Part shown: positions 8,925-35,830 of the stretch, one piece after another
How positions within the stretch are numbered: position 1 is the first letter of the stretch
How the letters are laid out: each line of letters starts with the position of its first letter
NCBI GenBank assembly: GCA_963816535.1
Contig: CAWFKW010000006.1
Span: forward strand, 324,334-388,333
DNA length: 64,000 bases
Direction of reading: 5' to 3'
From: an uncultured Ignavibacteria bacterium
GTDB lineage: Bacteria > Bacteroidota > Ignavibacteria > Tepidaquicellales > OLB5
The notes under the pieces: model-generated
Databases searched by the model: none
The model's input: only the letters and a program-made list of their open reading frames with translations
What the model was told of the DNA's origin: nothing
Made by a program: the position numbers and the translations under genes

Positions 8925-10300
8925 TTGAAAAGATATTTCTCAGAAAGCACTGTATTATTTGTCAGCGTGCTCAAGTGGGTTTTTTTATCCACGATTGTTG
9001 GTGTGATTGTCGGGTTGGCTACTACGGGCTTTTTGAAGCTCTTAAACATCAGCATTGCCGCGCTAAAGATTACCAATATTATTTTCTGCTGCTTCCGGCG
9101 GCTTTTTTTGTAAGCACTTTTATAATCCAATACCTTGCCCCCGATGCCGAAGGGCACGGCACTGAAAAAGTTATCGAAGCAGTGCACAAGAATTCGGGAA
9201 GAATAAAAGCTGCCGTAGTACCCGTTAAATTAGTTTCTACAATAATAACTCTTGCCGCGGGAGGCTCTGTAGGTAAAGAGGGGCCGTGTGCGCAGATAGG
9301 CGGCGGGCTCTCATCGTTGTTTGCCGACCTTTTAAGATTCGGCGATGAAGACCGGCGGAAACTTGTAATCTGCGGAATCAGCGCCGGGTTTGCGGCAGTG
9401 TTCGGCACGCCAATTGCCGGGGCGATCTTCGGGGTCGAAGTTCTATTTATCGGAAGTATCTTATATGAAGTGCTTCTCCCTTCCTTTATCGCCGGGATAA
9501 CAGCATACCAGATATCATCGTCGCTAGGATTAACTTATTTCCACCACACTATAAATTTTGTTCCCGTATTCAGCGAGGGTTTTTTCCTGAAGATCATGCT
9601 GGCAGGTTTGTTCTTTGGCGTGGTTTCCATAATATTCATTGAGACGCTCAAATATTTCGAAAAGCTTTCGGAAAAAATTAAAATATGGAAACCTCTTAAA
9701 GGCGTTATTGGCGGAGTTGTTTTAATAGGGCTCACGCTGATCTTTTCAAGTCAATATCTTGGGCTGGGCCTGGATTCAATTGAATCGAACTTAAAAGGCG
9801 GAAGTATTCCGTGGTACGCTTTTCTTGTAAAGATCCTTTTTACAAGTATTACATTGAGCTTCGGCGGAAGCGGCGGAATTGTTACGCCGATATTTTTTGC
9901 AGGAGCGGCATCGGGTTCTCTGTTTGCAGTCATTCTTGGGCTTGATCTTGCCACATTTTCCGGTATTGGGCTGGTTAGCGTCCTTGCTGGAGCGGCTAAT
10001 ACCCCGATTGCAGCGAGCATAATGGCTGTTGAATTATTCGGCCCCAAAATAGCGCCGTATGCTACTGTAGCTTGCGTTATCAGCTTTCTTATCACCGGCC
10101 ACAGAAGCGTTTACCCTTCGCAAATTCTTTCATTCAAGAAATCATCCTCCCTTAACGCGGATATAGGTATTGAAATAGAAGATGTTGAACCGCAGGAACA
10201 ACAGCAAATAGTCAACTTCAAGCGCCGAAGCCTTATAGCATTTGGAAAACTAAGAAGGCGAAAAAAAGCAAAGACTGAAAAAATGGATGATCCCGGCTGA
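8925..10300 (+). pseudogene. ClC-family chloride channel gene interrupted by an apparent 1-nt frameshift (or a sequencing error)
   Basis: Frame 3 (8925-~9080) encodes the first TM helix, KWVFLSTIVGVIVGLATTGFLKLL. Frame 2 from ~9080 encodes YFLLLPAAFFV..APDAEGHGTEKVIEA..GKEGPCAQIG..GIFGVEV..GIVTPIFF. Adding one T to the T4 run at 9082-9085 joins the two frames. Confidence 0.7.
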
Positions 10301-24126: not shown

Positions 24127-24279
24127 AGGTCATGCTCAAAATCAGCAGTTTACAATTTTATTTTCGTATATGTATGAAAAAGAGAAGCTTAGATATTAAG
24201 CAGCAGTTTATAAGAAGTTTAGCGGTGTGATTAGGTCTTTTTATTTTTGCTTGATCCAGGAAGGTCGTGTTTTCCGGAG

Positions 24280-24369
24280 CGGAGAGGGAGGGATTCGAAC
24301 CCTCGATAGCCCTTAACAGACTATGTCGGTTTAGCAAACCGGTGGTTTCAGCCACTCACCCACCTCTCC
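24280..24369 (-). tRNA. tRNA-Ser (anticodon GCU)
   Basis: The reverse complement folds by hand. Acceptor GGAGAGG/CCTCTCC. 3-bp D-stem with a long D-loop. Anticodon stem CCGGT/ACCGA with loop TTGCTAA (GCT). Long variable arm. T-arm GAGGG-TTCGAAT-CCCTC. Discriminator G. No encoded CCA. Confidence 0.9.
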
Positions 24370-24370
24370 G
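24327..24370. repeat. attL core: 44-bp direct repeat (tRNA-Ser nt 1-43 plus 1 nt)
   Basis: cggtttagcaaaccggtggtttcagccactcacccacctctccg is identical to 32908-32951. Confidence 0.9.
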
Positions 24371-24457
24371 GTGGTTAAAAGCTCAAACAAAACACTTGTA
24401 AAGAGCAAATATAGCGAAAAGGCAGGATATAAAAAACGGACAAAATCAGAATCCAGA

Positions 24458-24502
24458 GTACCCAAATAGTACCTAACAGTACCCAAAATAGTGCCCAAAA
24501 TC
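24458..24502 (+). promoter_or_regulatory. Four tandem ~11-bp iterons (candidate integrase arm-type or operator sites)
   Basis: GTACCCAAATA GTACCTAACA GTACCCAAAATA GTGCCCAAAATC, ending 32 bp upstream of the int1 ATG. Related sequences lie near attR (32449, 32479, 32855). Confidence 0.55.
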
Positions 24503-25797: not shown

Positions 25798-26136
25798 ATT
25801 TAGCAGCAAACACAAAACAAAACACTGACTATGAAAGAGATGTCGATTAGAACGCATCGATAATATTTTCAAGTCAACTCTTGAATATTTAATTAATCAA
25901 ATGGGTAAATATAACGAACATAAATTTTTATCAAAGAGGTACATTTGGGATGCGCAAGAGGGAAATGTAATATATGAACAATTAGGTAATTTGGGATATT
26001 ATTGTATTAATATTTTCCTCACGTCAAGCTCAATAAATAACCAAGTAAAAGATTATCACTCAAAACATTAATAACAGTACATAAATTAATTAAATCTCAA
26101 ACCTATTCTTAATGCCTAAATTAACTGGAGGCTAAA

Positions 26137-26286
26137 ATGAAAAAAATGTTAATATTTTTATCTTTATTATTAGCGTTGCATATAATACAAATGCTGGAGC
26201 ATAAATTTTGTCACGTTGTGGCTATAGACAGAATGTTGTATAAGCCGTTTCCGCTATGTCCATACTTTTATGCCCATTTTACTTAA
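26137..26286 (+). CDS. Unlisted 49-aa small protein, copy A (hydrophobic N-terminus, Cys/His-rich C-terminus)
   Basis: MKKMLIFLSLLLALHIIQMLEHKFCHVVAIDRMLYKPFPLCPYFYAHFT. The paralogue at 27579 differs at 13 nt, of which 9 are synonymous. Confidence 0.6.
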   Translation: MKKMLIFLSLLLALHIIQMLEHKFCHVVAIDRMLYKPFPLCPYFYAHFT

Positions 26287-26356
26287 CAGTTAACGGCATT
26301 AGGTTGTTGTTTCACGCTGGTTTTTTTATTGACCTAAACACAAAACATTTACTTAG

Positions 26357-26740
26357 ATGAACAATACTGAAATAGAATTCTTTGAAGCAGAAGTCCAATC
26401 TCTCAGAGCCAATGGCTATACAATACATGTGAAAAACACTACGTCAGCAGTTCTCGTAAAGAAAGAAAAGATTAATTATTTAATAGCATTCGCTCTCGCC
26501 GCAATTGAAGCCTTATTTTTTGTAATGCTTTGCAGAACATCAGTTAACACAACGAACCTCATTATTCTATTCGGAATTACCTGTGTAGTGTACTATCTTG
26601 TGCGAAAGGAACACTATTTGTTTATTAAATTGAATTCTATTGGACAATTAGAGAAGAAAAAATACAAATCCGTGAAGCCCGGCGAATTGCTAAATCTCTT
26701 TGACTTGTTTCAACAAGATGCCTTCTCAAATGATTATTAA
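26357..26740 (+). CDS. Hypothetical small membrane protein (2 predicted TM helices)
   Basis: 127-aa ORF with hydrophobic segments YLIAFALAAIEALFFVML and LIILFGITCVVYYLV. Island cargo. Confidence 0.5.
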   Translation: MNNTEIEFFEAEVQSLRANGYTIHVKNTTSAVLVKKEKINYLIAFALAAIEALFFVMLCRTSVNTTNLIILFGITCVVYYLVRKEHYLFIKLNSIGQLEKKKYKSVKPGELLNLFDLFQQDAFSNDY

Positions 26741-27519: not shown

Positions 27520-27578
27520 TGATACCGCAAAACAAAACATTTTTGGCATATTTATAGCTAAATAAACTGGACGCTAAA

Positions 27579-27728
27579 ATGAAAAAAATGCTGATATTTT
27601 TATCTTTATTATTAGCTCTGCATATAATACACGTGCTGGAGCACAAATTTTGTCACGTTGTGGCTATAGATAAAATGTTATATAAGCCGTTGCCGCTATG
27701 TCCCTACTTTTATGCTCATTTTACTTAA
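27579..27728 (+). CDS. Unlisted 49-aa small protein, copy B
   Basis: MKKMLIFLSLLLALHIIHVLEHKFCHVVAIDKMLYKPLPLCPYFYAHFT. It lies in the second copy of the 175-bp repeat. Confidence 0.6.
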   Translation: MKKMLIFLSLLLALHIIHVLEHKFCHVVAIDKMLYKPLPLCPYFYAHFT

Positions 27729-28506
27729 CAGTGCTATGATACTCAAAACAAAACATATAAAAATGAAAGCATTATTACCCGTCTCAATATTATTCATTTC
27801 CTTACTTTCATTTATTTGCTCGACTAATACAGAAATAGAGCAGAACAAAAATATAAATGCGGTCAAAGGTATACGTTTATACTATGATACTTTACATCTG
27901 AATCCTATAAACAAAGAATTTTACTTCCCCACAAATTTATATACTCATGATTCAATTTATTTATCGGATAGGTCTGACACAATTACCTTTAAGAGTTATT
28001 TGAAACCCAATAATGACCATTGGCAACGAATGAATGAATGGTATTCCGAAGCGCTGAGGGCATTAAAAGAACCAAAAATATATAATTTGGATACAACGCT
28101 AGAAATTTATCGCTTTACTTGGCTAAGAACCTTTCATAAACCCGTAGCTATAAGAATTGAAAACAATAATAATAAATACAAACTGTTTTTGAAAATAAGT
28201 GACGGGGCAGGCGGGTATTCACCGGGTAAACTAATTGTGAATGAAAATAAAATTCTAACATATGATGAATGGAATATTTTTAAAGATATGCTAAGTAAAA
28301 TAAATTTTTGGCAACTCGTTCCAGAAACCCTCGAAAACATGGGTAATGATGGTGCAGGGTGGATTTTAGAAGGCAAAACAAAAGATAAGTATAATTTTAT
28401 GACAATATGGAATCCAAACGAAAAACATCATCAAGATTTTCGTGAGTGCTGTGAATATTTAATAAATTTAAGCAAACTCAAAATAAAGAAATCTGAATTA
28501 TATTAA
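27712..28506 (+). CDS. Hypothetical secreted protein (likely start ATG 27763)
   Basis: Starting at 27763 gives the signal peptide MKALLPVSILFISLLSFICSTN. The upstream 17 codons overlap the small ORF and the repeat. Confidence 0.5.
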   Translation: MLILLNSAMILKTKHIKMKALLPVSILFISLLSFICSTNTEIEQNKNINAVKGIRLYYDTLHLNPINKEFYFPTNLYTHDSIYLSDRSDTITFKSYLKPNNDHWQRMNEWYSEALRALKEPKIYNLDTTLEIYRFTWLRTFHKPVAIRIENNNNKYKLFLKISDGAGGYSPGKLIVNENKILTYDEWNIFKDMLSKINFWQLVPETLENMGNDGAGWILEGKTKDKYNFMTIWNPNEKHHQDFRECCEYLINLSKLKIKKSELY

Positions 28507-29975: not shown

Positions 29976-30168
29976 ATTCATGCAATTATTTTTCTCCAAC
30001 AAATTGTAGTAAAAAGTGTATTTAATTTTGTTCTATGAATGAGAAAATCATAGTTCAAAAATCAGTTAGGTATTCAACGGCAGCAAGGTTTCTTTTTGAT
30101 GTGCATTCCCTTTCCCGCACTCAATTGGTTTTCTCCCCTGTTGCCGTTTCTGTTTTCAGAGAAAATCA

Positions 30169-31083
30169 ATGCCTCGCTCCCAGATAAATAAATCTCCTGT
30201 AATATATCTTGAACAACTACAAGCGCAAGTGTTAAAATACACAGCGTCAAATCTTGCTCTAAGCACTCATCAACTGTACGTTACGGCTTTCAAAAACTTA
30301 ATTGGTTTCTTAGGCAATGTTCCCGTTACGCTAATTACTTCAAAGCACATTGACGATTTTAAGAGTTTTCGCTCTGAACAAATATCAAAATCAACTGTAA
30401 ATATTCAATTATGTTGTATAAAAGCAGCTTTTAACCTTGCTGTTAGATGGAATATGCTTGAAGTCAGTCCCGCCGAAAACGTTAAGAAGTTCCGAGTAGA
30501 GCAAACGGAAATACTGTCATTCCGAGATGATGAATTAAGGGTACTGCTTTCAGAAATTCCAGACGGCAACTTAAAAAATATTGTTTTATTTGCCATATAC
30601 ACTGGTTGTCGTATAAACGAAATCCTAAACATTCAGCATAAAGACATTGACCTCACAGAAAGAATTTTATTTATACGCAACAATGCAGAAACGGGATTCA
30701 AAACCAAAACAGGGCGCAACCGTCAAATCCCTATTTCAGATAGCTTGTACAACCCCTTACAACGCCTTTTAAAGCACGATAGCAACGTTTACTGCTTATC
30801 TGAACCTGACAGATACCTATTTACCAACCGCAAGGGCTTCAAATTCCAAAAAGACTATATAAGCAAGCAATTCAAAAATCATTTAAGAGCTTGTAACCTG
30901 CCAGAAAAATTTCATTTTCATTGCCTGCGTCACACATTCGTAACAAACCTTATCCGAAACGGGGTCAATATTTCTTTCGTTAAGGAGTTAGCGGGGCATT
31001 CTAATATTTCAACCACGATGAATTATATACACCTTGTTACGGATGACCTTCGAGACGCTGTAAACAAGATTAAGTTTGGTTAG
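30169..31083 (+). CDS. int: Tyrosine recombinase/integrase paralogue lacking the N-terminal arm-binding-type domain
   Basis: By eye roughly 55-60% identical to Int1 from Int1 residue ~46 onward (PVIYLEQL.., TGCRINEILN, FHFHCLRHTFVTNL, GHSNISTTMNYIH). An in-frame TGA at 30097-99 prevents any N-terminal extension. Confidence 0.85.
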   Translation: MPRSQINKSPVIYLEQLQAQVLKYTASNLALSTHQLYVTAFKNLIGFLGNVPVTLITSKHIDDFKSFRSEQISKSTVNIQLCCIKAAFNLAVRWNMLEVSPAENVKKFRVEQTEILSFRDDELRVLLSEIPDGNLKNIVLFAIYTGCRINEILNIQHKDIDLTERILFIRNNAETGFKTKTGRNRQIPISDSLYNPLQRLLKHDSNVYCLSEPDRYLFTNRKGFKFQKDYISKQFKNHLRACNLPEKFHFHCLRHTFVTNLIRNGVNISFVKELAGHSNISTTMNYIHLVTDDLRDAVNKIKFG

Positions 31084-31085
31084 GC

Positions 31086-32330
31086 TTGAATATGAAAGTT
31101 TACATCCCCTCCACTTTGCCAATAGCCCTGTTTCCTGAAAAGCATAAGGACAAGTATTTCTATTTCCTTCACAAAATTTATGAGGAAAGAGTATTTAATA
31201 AGGAATATGAATATAACTCTTACGTTAACCTGAATGCTTCAATTATGAGATATATTATAGGTCGAGGAAGCTTTGAACCTGTTAGAAGTGCCTTAATCGC
31301 TAAAGGTATTATTGAAACTGATAACTGGTATGTTGTAGGTAAGAAGTCCAAAGGTTACAGGTTAACTTTTCAATATAGCGGTGTTAAACATCAGCAGTTA
31401 GAGATAACGGATAGTAATATTATTAACAGGGTAAGCGTATTTAAGCAAAGGCAGGAATACAACATTCCGCTGGGAATAGAATATCAAAAACTCCATGAAT
31501 GGCTTAATTTATTTTCTATTGACTATGAAAAAGCTATCCAGTTCATTAATTCAAACTACGCCGCCGACACTCACAAATGGATATGTAATACCATTTCTGT
31601 AGATAAAATTAAGGAAAAGGACATCTTTTTTGTTGCCGATAGTTCAGCAGGACGGGTTCATACTAATATAACCAATCTTTCAAGAGAGTTGAGGCGGTTT
31701 CTGCTATTTGATAATAAGCCTCTTGTCAATATTGACCTTGCAAACTCCCAACCGTTTTTGTTTAATATCTTAATCAAAAAATATGTTGACGGCGGCAACG
31801 TTTCTTTTTCTAACAATCTTCCCAATTCTCAATCACATCTTCTACCTTATGATGGCTACTATGATGGAAAAGTTAATAATGACATTGATTTATATTTACA
31901 ACTAACAAGCGACGGCAAGTTTTATGAGTATTTAATGCAACAAATGAATTACAACGGCGATAGGAACATGTTTAAAAAAGAGTTTTTCGGTAAGGTTTTT
32001 TACTCTAAAAATAGCTCTAATTATGTTTTCAGGGAACGGAAAGAGTTTAAACGGCTATTCCCTACAGTTTCTAACATTATTGATTACCTCAAAAAGGATG
32101 ACTATAGGGCGCTGCCCGTCATGTTACAACGTGCAGAACGTAAGATTATCATTAATAAAATTGTCAGGAGAATTGTCATTGAGCGTCCCGAACTCCCTAT
32201 TAGCACTATTCATGATAGCATTCTGACAACCAAAGGGAATGAAAACTATGTTAGCGATGTAATAAGGGAGGAATTTTCTAAAGAAATTAATTTGATACCG
32301 TCCATTAAGACCGAAATATATGGTTCTTAA
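31086..32330 (+). CDS. Minimal family-A (PolA/T7-like, TV-Pol-like) polymerase-like protein
   Basis: Ordered motifs AGRVHTN, PLVNIDLANSQPFLFNIL (A), RNMFKKEFFGKVFY (B) and ISTIHDSILTT (C). It starts 3 nt (TTG) or 9 nt (ATG 31092) after the int2 stop. Confidence 0.55.
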   Translation: MNMKVYIPSTLPIALFPEKHKDKYFYFLHKIYEERVFNKEYEYNSYVNLNASIMRYIIGRGSFEPVRSALIAKGIIETDNWYVVGKKSKGYRLTFQYSGVKHQQLEITDSNIINRVSVFKQRQEYNIPLGIEYQKLHEWLNLFSIDYEKAIQFINSNYAADTHKWICNTISVDKIKEKDIFFVADSSAGRVHTNITNLSRELRRFLLFDNKPLVNIDLANSQPFLFNILIKKYVDGGNVSFSNNLPNSQSHLLPYDGYYDGKVNNDIDLYLQLTSDGKFYEYLMQQMNYNGDRNMFKKEFFGKVFYSKNSSNYVFRERKEFKRLFPTVSNIIDYLKKDDYRALPVMLQRAERKIIINKIVRRIVIERPELPISTIHDSILTTKGNENYVSDVIREEFSKEINLIPSIKTEIYGS

Positions 32331-32907
32331 AGGCACAGTGAATGACGTTAGCGGCGTTTGCCATCAAGCGCTGTTTTCACTTTTTAGGTAATATTATATT
32401 TTTTTTAACTTCGCTTTTTAGCGTAATTTATATTAAGAGGCTATTAAGGTACTCACAAGCCATTCCAAAATCGGAATAGTGCCGAAATATGATAATACGA
32501 TACTTAGAAATTTGAGAAATCTGACATATCGTTATAAGCTAAACAAAGTTAATATAATAAAGATATTGTTACTTAATGTTGTATAGGCGGAAACGTCATA
32601 GAGAAATTACTACCTTACAAAGTTAGAAATTTTAACCATAACAGCTATTGATTTTATTTTGCAGTTGAATTAATTTGCAGACGTTAAAACTTCAAACAGC
32701 TAAAATTGAAAACAGAAATTTTATTTACACATTCCCGTCAGGGTTACAAAAAGGGTTTAGCTGCCCCGAAGTTTTCCTTGACGGGATTTGTGTTTAAAAG
32801 GAACTCACTACAAAAGAAATTAATCATTTTTTAGGGCTTGAAGTAACTAAAGAAGTACCTACGTTTTCGATTTGTTTTGTTTCCCCTGCAAATTTGCCAC
32901 TTACCAA

Positions 32908-32951
32908 CGGTTTAGCAAACCGGTGGTTTCAGCCACTCACCCACCTCTCCG
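32908..32951. repeat. attR core: orphan 5' fragment of tRNA-Ser
   Basis: Identical 44 bp. The sequence on the side where the tRNA 3' half should be (..ttaccaa) is not tRNA-like. Confidence 0.9.
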
Positions 32952-33381
32952 TGATAAATTAGCTGAATTATTACCAAACATAATCATTTCTCAGGAATTT
33001 TCACAGACAAAAAAATAGACCACCGAGAGTTCAATTTACGATGAACATATTCTGGATCCAAATCTCCTGTATAGAAACCTCCTTACTCCGAAATCCTATT
33101 ATGCCTCTCCCAGGCAGTAGCTTGGGAGGGAGTAATGAGTTTAGCCGCTGTTTTCACAAATTACTGCCGCTGGTGGCGTTATAGCCAACAACTTTTAAAT
33201 ATAATGTATCCTTAGAAAAATATCTTTCATAAAAAACTCATATTACTGCCGTTGTTGGCGTTATCACCAGCAACTTTTAAGCCGGGAACTTCTTACGAAA
33301 TTCAGCATTGAGAATTAAATGGCAAAAAGCGAACTTAAGCTAAATATTTTCCTAATCTTGAATTCAAACCTCAACTAGTAT

Positions 33382-34167
33382 ATGAAAACTCAGAAAAATA
33401 TCTTTCATAAAAAACTCATTGGCAAGTGGGGTAAATTTACTATTTATCTGGTTGATGATGAAATAGTCCGCAACAAAGCCGAATATGCAGAAGAATTCAG
33501 CGACTACGGCGTGAACATTGGCAAGAGAGGACTGGCTACGCTGAATTTCAAATTCATACCGAAAGATGAAATATGGATAGCAAAATCCATCAAAGCGTCA
33601 GAAAGACATTTTATTATCGGTAACGCGCTATCTTACATAAAAAATATTGAAAACGGAGTAGAACCCGGCAAGGCATATGATAATGCCCTTAAACAGGAGC
33701 AGGACCGCCGCACAAATGAGGCAATAAATAAGCTTCATATAAAGACAAAGACGCTTTTTGATAATCCGCTTCATAAAAATGTGCCAAAGAAAGTTTATAA
33801 GAAGAAATATCTTGTAATAAAAGATAAGAAAGATATCGTAAGCGTATACTTAATCAATGCGCAGGTTGTGCGCGATTTGTACAAACCCGATTATGTTGAA
33901 GGCGGGCACGGTTATGTTTATGAATGGATACCTGAAAATGAAATATGGATTGATGTGAAAGTGAAGCAGGATGAAATACCGGTAATAATACTCCACGAAT
34001 ACCTGGAAAGGATATTGATGAAGTATAAGAAGTTTCCTTATGTAAGGGCGCATAACGCCGCGCTAAGAGTTGAGTTTGAGCACAGGGGAATTTTCAACAA
34101 GAAAGACGCCGCCGCGCTGAGCAGGAATGTTGTGCTGAATAAGCTCTTGCAGAATATCAAATACTAA
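33382..34167 (+). CDS. Hypothetical protein with internal two-fold repeat
   Basis: 261-aa ORF with repeated IP(K/E)(D/N)EIWI blocks. HEYLE is not a canonical HExxH motif. No family recognised. Confidence 0.5.
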   Translation: MKTQKNIFHKKLIGKWGKFTIYLVDDEIVRNKAEYAEEFSDYGVNIGKRGLATLNFKFIPKDEIWIAKSIKASERHFIIGNALSYIKNIENGVEPGKAYDNALKQEQDRRTNEAINKLHIKTKTLFDNPLHKNVPKKVYKKKYLVIKDKKDIVSVYLINAQVVRDLYKPDYVEGGHGYVYEWIPENEIWIDVKVKQDEIPVIILHEYLERILMKYKKFPYVRAHNAALRVEFEHRGIFNKKDAAALSRNVVLNKLLQNIKY

Positions 34168-34333
34168 GCCTTCACCGGCCATCTAAGTTAAATTGACTTA
34201 ATTGAGTTTATATTAGTTATGTCAGAATACCACGTTTGCGGCCCTAAAATCACGAAATCCGTTAGCAATTTCCTTTTAATAAACTTTATTATCAGTTAAA
34301 TTTAATGCGCTAAAAATTTACTAATTACATTCT

Positions 34334-35830
34334 ATGAAAAAGAGCCTTTTTCTCATTTGGGTTTTTCTGGCATCGTTCATAATTTATTCTCCTTCGGATC
34401 TGCACAGCCAGGAATCCGATCTGAATAAGATAATTAAATCAGGCCAGGACGCAGAGCAAACAGGCAATTATACCGAAGCCCTGTTTTATTATTCGGCAGC
34501 CATAGACGCCGACCCTGCATACGTGGATAGTTATGTGTACCGCGGCGGGTTGTACAAAAGAATGAAGAATTATCCCAAGGCCAAGCTAGACTTCCAGCAG
34601 GTGGTTAAAATAAACCCGCAGAATGAACAGGCGTATATGGACCTTGGATTGATCGACACTGAACTTAAGAGCTTCGCCGACGCGGTAAACGATTACAGCT
34701 CGGTTCTCTCTATCAACCCTAACAACGCCGATGCATATTATTTTAGGGGCAATAGTTATAATTCGCTTGGAAAGCTTAAAGAAGCGGCGGGCGATTATTC
34801 AAAAGCTGTTGAGCTTAACCCTTCAAATACCGATGCAAGCGCAAAGCTGGCGTCTGTTAACAACCAGCTTAATCAGAACGTGCAGATAACCTCAGCGGAT
34901 AACCAGAAATCAACAGATAACCAGAAATCAACAGATAACCAGAAATCAACGGATGAGAAAAACGAAAAGAGGAATGATGTAAGCGTTGAAAAGAAAACAG
35001 ACGTAACGACGGAAAACAAAACGGAAGATAACAGCCGGAAGAAACCCGATGTGACCGTAGACAATAAAACCGATGACAGCAAACAAGTTGCGGTAAATGA
35101 ACCTGAGAAAACAGGCGATTCTAAGAATGTACTTGTCAGAGAAAAACCCACTGAAGATAACAGCGTTTCAGATACCGACGGCGACAACCAGCAGCAGGAT
35201 ATTGCGGACAATACTCAGACGACAAACCCGGACAATACACAGGCCGATAACCAAAATACGAATCAAACAGAAAACACAAATAATACTTCTCCTGAAGTTA
35301 CTAACAATACTCAAACAGAAAATAATGTAAATACCGAAGAGAAAAAGGAAGAAGTAGCGCCCATAGTAGAGCCAAAGCCCGATATAGAGAATTTTATAAT
35401 GACAGGACTAGGGTACTATGAAAAGAAACAGTTCCAGAAAGCGCTTGATGAATATGACAAGGCGGTGCAGATAGACCCCGATTTTTACGAAGCCCATTAT
35501 CATAAAGGCAGAGCCTACACCGAGCTAAACGATTATGACGACGCTATTATGGAATATACCAGGACCATAGAGCTTGATCCTTCGCATGAAAAAGCTCACG
35601 TTAACCGCGGGTATATTTATAACGAACTGAAACAGTACGATAAGGCGATAGCCGATTATCAGAAAGCTGTGGAGATAAATCCAAAATCAGTTTTCGGATA
35701 TTACAACATGGGAATTACTTATTATAACATGAAAGATAAAGATGATGCTGCAAAAAGCTTTCAGCAGGCCGCGAGGCTGGGAGATACAGATTCACAGGAG
35801 TGGCTTCAGTCGAACGGTTACAGCTGGTAA
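34334..35830 (+). CDS. TPR-repeat protein with a long low-complexity central linker
   Basis: Signal peptide. TPR units are present at both ends (A..Y..A...DP....AY..RG..Y). The central region is D/N/Q/T/K-rich. Confidence 0.8.
   Translation: MKKSLFLIWVFLASFIIYSPSDLHSQESDLNKIIKSGQDAEQTGNYTEALFYYSAAIDADPAYVDSYVYRGGLYKRMKNYPKAKLDFQQVVKINPQNEQAYMDLGLIDTELKSFADAVNDYSSVLSINPNNADAYYFRGNSYNSLGKLKEAAGDYSKAVELNPSNTDASAKLASVNNQLNQNVQITSADNQKSTDNQKSTDNQKSTDEKNEKRNDVSVEKKTDVTTENKTEDNSRKKPDVTVDNKTDDSKQVAVNEPEKTGDSKNVLVREKPTEDNSVSDTDGDNQQQDIADNTQTTNPDNTQADNQNTNQTENTNNTSPEVTNNTQTENNVNTEEKKEEVAPIVEPKPDIENFIMTGLGYYEKKQFQKALDEYDKAVQIDPDFYEAHYHKGRAYTELNDYDDAIMEYTRTIELDPSHEKAHVNRGYIYNELKQYDKAIADYQKAVEINPKSVFGYYNMGITYYNMKDKDDAAKSFQQAARLGDTDSQEWLQSNGYSW
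34898..34951 (+). repeat. 3 x 18-bp in-frame tandem repeat (DNQKST)
   Basis: gataaccagaaatcaaca x3; the last base of the third unit is g. Confidence 0.9.

Follow-up and report, generated by a model that had tools for sequence, protein, structure and literature searches.

A winged-helix protein with a minimal family-A polymerase fold, encoded together with tyrosine integrases in tRNA-bounded elements

Results

A polymerase-like gene at the end of an 8.6-kb tRNA-bounded island

We analysed a 64,000-nt stretch of DNA from an uncultured Ignavibacteria bacterium (contig CAWFKW010000006.1 of assembly GCA_963816535.1, positions 324,334 to 388,333 of the forward strand; hereafter the window), and in it an open reading frame (ORF) of 414 codons that a first-pass annotation had described as a minimal family-A polymerase-like protein coupled to an integrase. 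The ORF lies in an 8.6-kb island whose two ends are marked by a perfect direct repeat of 44 bp that reproduces the 5' half of a tRNA-Ser gene (Table 1). The 27-nt core of this repeat is expected by chance 0 times, and the GC content of the island is 0.31–0.36 versus 0.43–0.47 in the flanks. Starting from the tRNA, the island carries a tyrosine integrase gene (int1), ORFs for small or secreted proteins without a family match, a 171-aa ORF, a second tyrosine integrase gene (int2, whose product is 57% identical to that of int1), the polymerase gene and 577 nt of non-coding DNA. For the protein and its relatives we use the name wHTH-PolA, after the predicted architecture: a winged helix, a short helical thumb-like region and a palm/fingers core of ~230 aa.

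The gene directly upstream is indeed a tyrosine integrase, and the close spacing described earlier was found as well: the int2 stop codon (TAG, 31081–31083) is followed by a TTG after 2 nt and by an ATG at 31092 after 8 nt. Since homologues begin with MKxYIPS in the family alignment, the ATG is probably the true start.

The catalytic core has the fold and motifs of family-A polymerases

Sequence models gave no significant match to the protein in Pfam (including PF00476, DNA_pol_A, the search that the first-pass annotation had recommended, and PF00940), NCBIfam, PHROGs or PADLOC, and sequence searches of the PDB with the protein (phmmer) or the family profile (hmmsearch) returned nothing relevant. 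When 44 family members were searched for PF00476 and PF00940 there was again no significant match, the faint PF00940 match of one member (E 0.054) being below significance. The lone Pfam signal was a sub-threshold match to DUF6339 (E 0.0025, 18 bits versus a cut-off of 23.2 bits; aa 276–408 of the ORF at 31086–32327). It spans exactly the region from motif B to motif C; judging by this overlap, DUF6339 proteins might be pieces of PolA-like fingers and palm in their own right.

Structure comparison was far more informative. An AlphaFold2 model of the full-length protein, computed with the family alignment as input, had a predicted local distance difference test score (pLDDT) of 93.7 and a predicted template-modelling score (pTM) of 0.89. 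Searching the PDB with this model by Foldseek yielded 109 matches at E<=1e-3, and the top 50 were all family-A DNA polymerases (probability 1.0, E 5.7e-6 to 2e-4), including Aquifex Pol1, M. smegmatis Pol1, the apicoplast polymerase, KlenTaq, Bst, T7 DNA polymerase and Pol theta. The TM-scores to these polymerases were 0.24–0.41, as expected because the protein is much smaller. Among viral predicted structures the best matches resembled the protein over its full length (TM 0.82 and 0.76), and one of these, from an uncultured marine phage, bears the name 'putative DNA polymerase I'; a series of 400–450 aa phage proteins came next, and then classical phage PolAs.

All four sequence blocks on which the first reading had been built are present, at aa 188–194 (AGRVHTN), 212–229 (PLVNIDLANSQPFLFNIL), 293–306 (RNMFKKEFFGKVFY) and 372–382 (ISTIHDSILTT). 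In the model D217 closes a beta-strand, K297 sits within a helix and H376-D377 occupy the turn of a beta-hairpin, matching PolA motifs A, B and C. The predicted structure thus has the palm that defines the family-A superfamily, with the motif A Asp at a strand end and the motif C Asp at a hairpin turn, and it also has the O-helix signature of family-A fingers, R-x3-K-x3-F/Y, as R293, K297 and F301 of the helix 293–304. Given their conservation among homologues (next section), the blocks are no chance look-alikes. The earlier description as a minimal family-A polymerase-like protein that has no exonuclease domain therefore holds, with motifs A, B and C in order and right-hand PolA structures as its closest structural matches.

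The active site is invariant in a large, unannotated family

A word-indexed search found 120 homologues in Ignavibacteria, Chlorobi, Bacteroidota and Planctomycetota. Their names were uninformative in every source, nearly all being 'hypothetical protein'. An exhaustive search of 50%-identity cluster representatives then gave 5103 proteins at E<=1e-3 and 3161 at E<=1e-10, so that the wHTH-PolA family is both very large and unannotated.

Conservation was counted in an alignment of 143 homologues that are 25–65% identical to the query. R190, D217, Q222, K297, E351, H376 and D377 are invariant (143/143); the two proposed catalytic Asp residues, D217 and D377, whose loss among homologues would have spoken against a polymerase, are thus kept throughout. 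R203 is found in 142/143, Q348 in 140/143, S378 in 129/143 and F301 in 118/143, and at position 293 there are 123 sequences with R and 10 with K. Further near-invariant residues are N220, S221, P223, Y280, K336 and T374. Two positions at the end of motif B alternate: at 305, 85 of the sequences have F and 46 have L, and at 306, 85 have F and 57 have Y.

Some members are extended at the C terminus. One of 640 aa (P0106) has NUMOD4, NUMOD1 and HNH_3 modules resembling homing endonucleases, and one of 538 aa (P0118, L021:7001-8617; L numbers denote related loci) has a DUF6965 domain. A literature search on these DUFs, DUF6339 and DUF6965, found nothing.

Profile comparison connects the family to classical PolA

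A family hidden Markov model (HMM) did not match E. coli PolA or MAP_030 of Microcystis phage Ma-LMM01. Against a Klenow-type profile of 12 sequences (E. coli PolA and IMG/VR phage PolAs), hhalign produced a profile–profile alignment that is colinear across 305 columns and is not significant alone (E 0.05, prob 1%). It pairs D217 with D705, Q222 with E710, R293/K297/F301 with R754/K758/F762 and H376-D377 with H881-D882 of Klenow, and motif B also with Klenow Y766, thereby reproducing the assignments of motifs A, B and C that had been made by eye.

A better bridge came from a viral locus (L036:8768-11217, IMG/VR UViG_3300037264_005791), in which a wHTH-PolA homologue is followed, with overlapping stop and start codons, by a 429-aa minimal family-A polymerase (PF00476, E 2.8e-18). 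The family profile aligned to this 429-aa PolA with E 0.0036 and a score of 28.7, covering motifs B to C, while 82 composition-preserving shuffles of the latter scored 15.3 +/- 2.3 with a maximum of 20.8. By this measure the wHTH-PolA family resembles a bona fide member of PF00476 in sequence more than chance would allow; altogether, the relationship to PolA is detectable by profile–profile and fold comparison only. The alignment sets GGRLST against AGRVHT, KRAFCKNCLFLPVVYG against RNMFKKEFFGKVFY and HIHDG against TIHDS. The coupled pair may represent a primase/initiator and an elongating polymerase. An aspartate/ornithine carbamoyltransferase gene and a gene for an intein-containing AAA_3 ATPase lie near it.

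The same alignment changes one of the earlier assignments. AGRVHTN had been equated with the GRVHT segment upstream of motif A. Because the spacing from R to NL in GR190VHTNITN197L198 equals that in Klenow TGR668LSSTDPN675L676, and because GGRLST of the viral PolA pairs with AGRVHT, R190 is probably the hairpin arginine of the TGRLSS segment instead.

The N-terminal part is a winged helix followed by a thumb-like region

The ~185 N-terminal residues, left unassigned in the first-pass annotation, resolve into two parts. Residues 1–107 are predicted to form a winged-helix DNA-binding domain. A Foldseek search of the PDB with this domain gave winged-helix proteins exclusively, none of them reaching E<=1e-3. 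The top matches by probability and TM-score were the N-terminal domains of RepA_N plasmid initiators (5kbj, 4pql and 4pt7; prob 0.84–0.97, TMq 0.53–0.56, root-mean-square deviation 2.6–3.7, E 0.1–0.3), of which 5kbj is a Rep–DNA complex. MarR, ArsR and PadR regulators scored about as high; for this reason, and because E exceeded 1e-3 everywhere, we assign the domain to no family. The domain is kept family-wide, with P8 and L70 near-invariant. Residues 108–180, which follow it, are helical and colinear with Klenow residues ~597–652 in the hhalign alignment, and would correspond to the thumb.

Table 1. Positions of the features discussed, in window coordinates; residues of the polymerase protein are counted from the TTG codon.
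Feature	Position (nt)	Strand	Basis or remark
tRNA-Ser(GCT), integration target	24279..24369	-	ARAGORN; Rfam RF00005, 56 bits
44-bp direct repeat (tRNA 5' half), left copy	24327..24370		perfect repeat
int1, tyrosine integrase, 346 aa	24535..25575	+	tRNA-proximal island end; PF00589 E 1.9e-31
int2, tyrosine integrase, 304 aa	30169..31083	+	PF00589 E 1.6e-33
wHTH-PolA gene	31086..32330	+	414 aa counted from TTG; ATG alternative at 31092
Winged-helix domain (predicted), aa 1-107	31086..31406	+	stand-alone model of aa 1-112, pLDDT 96.8
Helical region in thumb position, aa 108-180	31407..31625	+	helices 110-125, 131-140, 147-158, 162-176
AGRVHTN, second beta-hairpin strand with invariant R190	31647..31667	+	strands 182-184, 191-193 (model)
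Motif A block PLVNIDLANSQPFLFNIL, putative catalytic D217 and invariant N-S-Q-P	31719..31772	+	strand 211-218, then helix 221-235
Fingers loop, aa 242-260	31809..31865	+	pLDDT <50, sole disordered loop; length-variable in alignment
Motif B, O-helix-like, RNMFKKEFFGKVFY	31962..32003	+	helix 293-304 with R293, K297
Long helix, aa 342-366, with L-Q348-R-x-E351	32109..32183	+	model and conservation
Motif C hairpin ISTIHDSILTT, H376-D377-S378	32199..32231	+	strands 372-375, 378-382
AT-rich non-coding stretch	32331..32907		longest ORFs <=48 aa; weak repeats
44-bp direct repeat, right copy	32908..32951		island end, 577 nt past polymerase stop

The polymerase gene is a constant part of small integrase elements

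Homologues were found in related elements bounded by tRNA repeats, with sizes from 4.8 to 9.2 kb (L009 4.8 kb, L021 5.2 kb, and L006, L010, L013 and L019 about 8–9 kb); even the smallest, of 4.8–5.2 kb, retain the polymerase gene. An intact tRNA or tmRNA gene stands at the polymerase end in L001, L006, L008–L010, L013 and L021; in L019 and the window it is found at the integrase end.

A tyrosine integrase gene is directly adjacent on the same strand in the window, L005, L019/L020, L069 and L073, and adjacent in reverse order, polymerase then integrase, in L047/L048. At other loci 0.4–7 kb separate the integrase from the polymerase gene, and the cargo between them, restriction-modification genes among it, varies. 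All 12 of the close metagenomic relatives with at least 3 kb of upstream sequence have an upstream integrase on the same strand. The proposed coupling to a tyrosine integrase thus stands as co-residence on one strand of a single tRNA-bounded element, whereas immediate adjacency recurs without being a rule. In L001, L008, L011 and L014 the polymerase gene is directly preceded by an HTH_17 excisionase-like gene, which in L021 lies one small ORF further upstream, and tblastn detected similar genes in L053, L055 and L058. No helicase, Rep, SSB (a protein that binds single-stranded DNA) or relaxase family was found in the Pfam-annotated neighbourhoods of the island and the related elements, leaving the polymerase as the sole candidate replication gene in the elements examined.

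The repeats of the window, L006, L009, L010, L013 and L019 copy the 5' half of the tRNA, from its 5' end to just past the anticodon stem; they are 39–54 nt long, and the targets are tRNA-Ser, tRNA-Ala and tRNA-His. The part of the tRNA usually found in attachment (att) repeats is the 3' end. Duplication of the 5' half leaves the intact tRNA severed from its original upstream region. L021, a Bacteroidales relative with another type of integrase, has the classical 3' part of tRNA-Asn. The orientation of the genes relative to the tRNA in the window and L019 is unlike that in L006, L009, L010 and L013.

Two of these relatives have repeat arrays at their ends. In the 5.2-kb L021 element, whose integrase has an Arm-DNA-bind_5 domain, the 11-bp unit TCTGTTACAAA occurs about five times beside one att copy and twice beside the other (L021:4290-4376 and 9270-9315); these are probably arm-type sites. 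In L019 (5027–5292) 21-bp units alternate with a 42-bp period over ~6 periods, directly beside the tRNA-His attachment site on the side facing away from the element.

Homologues were found in viral genomes and on a plasmid as well. Several are encoded by metagenomic huge-phage genomes of 595–735 kb with unannotated records (LR756511.1, LR756501.1/03.1, LR745206.1, LR756502.1 and LR756504.1; 24–35% identity). A homologue on a Hymenobacter plasmid was considered as the replication protein of that plasmid and ruled out, the plasmid having its own annotated initiator, with ParA.

Other features of the island and its right flank

We also considered that the island might consist of two tandem elements, one with int1 and one with int2 and the polymerase. 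This was rejected because no third att copy exists within 3 mismatches. The AT-rich stretch at 32331–32907 is a candidate attP arm or origin.

Directly 5' of int1 (24455–24498) there are four tandem copies of the 11-bp motif A(T/G/C)AGT(A/G)CC(C/T)AA, which occurs 8 times in the window versus 1.5 expected; they are candidate integrase arm-type sites or an operator. Upstream of int2, a 190-nt stretch holds three copies of the motif GAGAAAATCA, with both orientations represented (30041–30168). Neither this cluster nor the 11-bp repeat could be linked to the polymerase. Inside the island a 182-nt repeat, 90% identical between its copies (26109–26290 and 27551–27732), stands just upstream of the larger cargo ORFs 26357–26740 and 27712–28506; each copy has a possible ORF of ~49 aa that starts with MKKMLIFLSLLLALH, is signal-peptide-like and contains Cys.

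Past the right att copy the GC content stays low for another ~1.2 kb (32952–34200), and this may be the remnant of an older insertion. It holds 42-nt and 38-nt repeats (33157–33419) and a 261-aa ORF without a family match (33382–34167) that has an internal duplication, IPKDEIWI / IPENEIWI (nt 33551–33578 and 33923–33950). An ORF at 34334–35830 resembles a TPR-repeat lipoprotein: a long low-complexity linker rich in T, N, D and Q separates two TPR blocks, and an 18-nt tandem repeat at 34892–34954 encodes (S/T)DNQKS.

Comparison with known polymerases and elements

The closest published description is that of TV-Pol, which Iyer, Abhiman and Aravind predicted in 2008 to be the primase-polymerase of elements bearing integrases or resolvases (PMC2579912). 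TV-Pols were defined by a core of four parts, namely a thumb made of helices, a beta-hairpin whose Arg is absolutely conserved, a palm containing two Asp and fingers bearing RxxxK, and by the lack of a nuclease; they occur with a D5-like helicase or, in a subset with an additional N-terminal domain (TV-PolN, predicted to be all-helical), with a resolvase, lambda-type integrase or transposase (PMC2579912). The protein described here shares the minimal, four-part and nuclease-free core, the extra N-terminal globular domain, the setting in mobile elements with a tyrosine (lambda-type) integrase and the distribution over Bacteroidetes and Planctomycetes. It differs in that its N-terminal domain is a predicted winged helix with beta-strands. 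No helicase was seen in its elements.

Sequence statistics do not add to this likeness. MAP_030 of Ma-LMM01 is a probable TV-Pol, judging by its motifs and the neighbouring IS605-type transposase genes. Against its family hhalign gave a weak N-terminal match alone (E 0.007, prob 5%); the catalytic part had no match, and the trimmed core did no better than a reversed control. In the viral structure search the TV-Pol–helicase fusion of the Zamilon virophage (V6BPG7) ranked 34 (E 1.6e-4), below several classical phage PolAs. A search from a planctomycete homologue returned members from Gemmataceae and Bremerella, the exact species named in PMC2579912 not being among them. Membership in TV-Pol, raised in the first-pass annotation, is thus backed by architecture and context and not by sequence statistics, and on the former grounds we would most probably place the protein in that group.

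That annotation had also regarded such polymerases as biochemically unstudied, which is outdated. CcPol of SCCmec, a TV-Pol member and a distant relative of the protein described here, is together with its partner MP a PolA-type primase-polymerase that uses deoxynucleotide triphosphates (dNTPs), as characterised by Bebel et al.; CcPol alone extends primers, and it primes only when bound to MP, a single-stranded DNA (ssDNA)-binding protein (PMC7581432). CcPol-MP is the only relative of its type with demonstrated de novo DNA synthesis. As in CcPol-MP and the PolA-SSB primases of Bacillota (PMC7581432, PMC10061031), the PolA-fold subunit here is encoded by an integrative element beside a recombinase. 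CcPol, however, needs MP as a separate OB-fold partner, is encoded in an operon with the helicase Cch2 and with large serine recombinases, and itself lacks the TV-Pol N-terminal domain (PMC10061031), whereas here the polymerase itself carries a DNA-binding domain and a tyrosine integrase serves as recombinase. A gene for an MP-like partner is missing from the stretch that separates the polymerase stop from the end of the island, where all ORFs are <=48 aa. Because MP, a helicase and a serine recombinase are all missing, this is not a system of the CcPol-MP type.

In relatives of the window, small ORFs of 61–87 aa and of two types overlap or abut the polymerase stop (L005:8293-8478, L009:8251-8445 and L013:8255-8446; L006:8182-8439, L010:8236-8499 and L007:6652-6906, the one in L007 lying upstream of the polymerase instead). 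Pfam does not recognise them and the window has no equivalent; by analogy with MP they could be accessory subunits.

Bacterial Pol I enzymes (Klenow, KlenTaq, Aquifex, M. smegmatis) are the best structural matches, with colinear motifs A, B and C. Compared with them the protein is about half the size of a Klenow-type polymerase, ~10–14% identical, and devoid of 3'-5' and 5'-3' exonucleases; its motif A Asp is followed by N-S-Q-P, in which Gln replaces the steric-gate Glu of Klenow, and it has HDS in place of HDE. The RepA_N initiators 5kbj, 4pql and 4pt7, the best-scoring matches to the N-terminal domain, show no sequence similarity to it, and many unrelated winged-helix transcription factors score similarly; this likeness of models supports a DNA-binding winged helix and not membership in RepA_N.

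At the level of the whole element, the closest analogue is the pipolin. Pipolins are small or mid-size elements at tRNA genes with direct repeats, tyrosine recombinases and a putatively priming polymerase of their own (PMC5695915, PMC11551731). Their primer-independent piPolB belongs to family B and the polymerase here to family A, which makes pipolins analogues and not homologues.

Discussion

We propose, with a probability that we put at roughly 0.6, that the ORF encodes an active minimal family-A polymerase which acts as replication initiator and primase-polymerase of the excised, circular element. A working polymerase is indicated by the active site, which is complete and does not vary among homologues. 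A role in initiation on the excised circle is suggested because a DNA-binding domain is fused to the core and conserved family-wide, because the gene has a fixed place beside the integrase/excisionase module, and because the elements carry no other replication gene. Its gene belongs to the core of these elements of 5–9 kb, which integrate at tRNA genes by means of their tyrosine integrase. On the excised form the winged helix would recognise a site within the element, and the PolA core would start and/or extend a DNA strand, with D217 and D377 holding two metal ions, the helix of R293/K297 taking the incoming nucleotide triphosphate and the hairpin arginine R190 contacting the duplex; host enzymes would finish replication. 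The substrate may be dNTPs, as for CcPol. Sugar selectivity cannot be predicted from the protein because an invariant Gln occupies the steric-gate position and Phe or Leu the position of Klenow Y766.

Several observations weigh against this proposal. Winged helices normally bind duplex DNA, not ssDNA. CcPol needs a separate ssDNA-binding partner to prime, and the window encodes no such partner. Catalysis in the wHTH-PolA family is itself predicted from sequence and models, and the links by sequence are weak, with no PF00476, PF00940 or PDB sequence match for the polymerase. No convincing iterons and no origin could be recognised beside the gene, weak repeats alone being found in 32331–32907. 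Terminal overlaps, which would indicate a free circular form, were seen in 0 of 80 metagenomic loci, whole contigs included. Finally, the Hymenobacter plasmid has an initiator besides its homologue, and homologues occur in huge-phage genomes and in viral contigs without an adjacent integrase.

The most far-reaching form of the proposal is that of a self-sufficient, site-specific PolA-fold initiator-primase in which the fused winged helix would replace both the ssDNA-binding partner of CcPol and the helicase. We put this form forward tentatively, and think it somewhat more apt to be wrong than right.

A more modest function, which we regard as unlikely, is that of a primer-dependent polymerase without priming or origin recognition of its own, one that closes gaps or copies the element while the integrase moves it (a role in 'replicative transposition' was proposed by Iyer et al., PMC2579912) or that extends primers made by the host primase. 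CcPol alone behaves in this way, extending but unable to prime without MP (PMC7581432), and the window has no MP-like gene; moreover, the viral homologue coupled to a classical minimal PolA suggests that two proteins can share out the tasks. However, the family-wide fused winged helix, with its conserved P8 and L70, points to specific DNA recognition, which plain elongation would not need, and the elements contain no other initiator.

The protein could also be a T7-type single-subunit RNA polymerase or RNA primase that transcribes the genes of the element or makes RNA primers, with the winged helix recognising promoters; to us this looks improbable. Motif C reads H-D-S as in T7 RNA polymerase, an invariant Gln and not Glu aligns with the Klenow steric gate E710, and there is the faint PF00940 match of one family member. 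Against this, that match is not significant, no RNA polymerase appears among the top 50 PDB matches, all of which are DNA polymerases, and the HDS triplet is the sole shared feature. Position 305, which aligns with Klenow Y766, corresponds to Y639 of T7 RNA polymerase, the residue that senses the ribose; being F in the protein described here and F or L in most homologues, it lacks the ribose-sensing hydroxyl.

A shade less probable still is that the gene is cargo or serves defence, for example by encoding an abortive-infection polymerase that makes untemplated or decoy nucleic acid, and has no part in the life cycle of the element. Related elements do carry restriction-modification cargo, and phage genomes encode homologues, but PADLOC found no match and the gene is present even in the elements of 4.8–5.2 kb. 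It also keeps its place and strand, often beside the integrase or an excisionase-like gene, whereas the cargo between integrase and polymerase varies. That the fold is catalytically dead and serves as a DNA-binding regulator, as might be imagined from PolA-SSB pairs in which the Pol is little beyond a possibly inactive RRM core (Rice 2023, PMC10061031), is barely credible: even in homologues of 25% identity the two Asp that bind metal, the Lys of the O-helix and the Arg of the hairpin are never replaced (143/143).

A polymerase of this kind was already predicted computationally in 2008; what is new here is that its winged helix has been recognised and that the integrase-polymerase elements of ~5–9 kb have clear boundaries. 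A PolA fold combined with a complete active site and an attached DNA-binding domain provides a concrete, testable function for a core gene of a widespread class of tRNA elements, and its small size makes the protein a candidate minimal family-A polymerase for enzymology and engineering. If it does prime its own synthesis, it would be the second PolA-type primase to be examined after CcPol-MP and the first with a single chain, and it would bear on how polymerases are normally restrained from initiating de novo. Were it a self-sufficient initiator-primase, a minimal integrative element could replicate itself with an integrase and this one gene. Such elements would then parallel pipolins, with PolA in place of PolB, and would be abundant in Ignavibacteriota, Bacteroidota and Planctomycetota and target the 5' half of tRNA genes.

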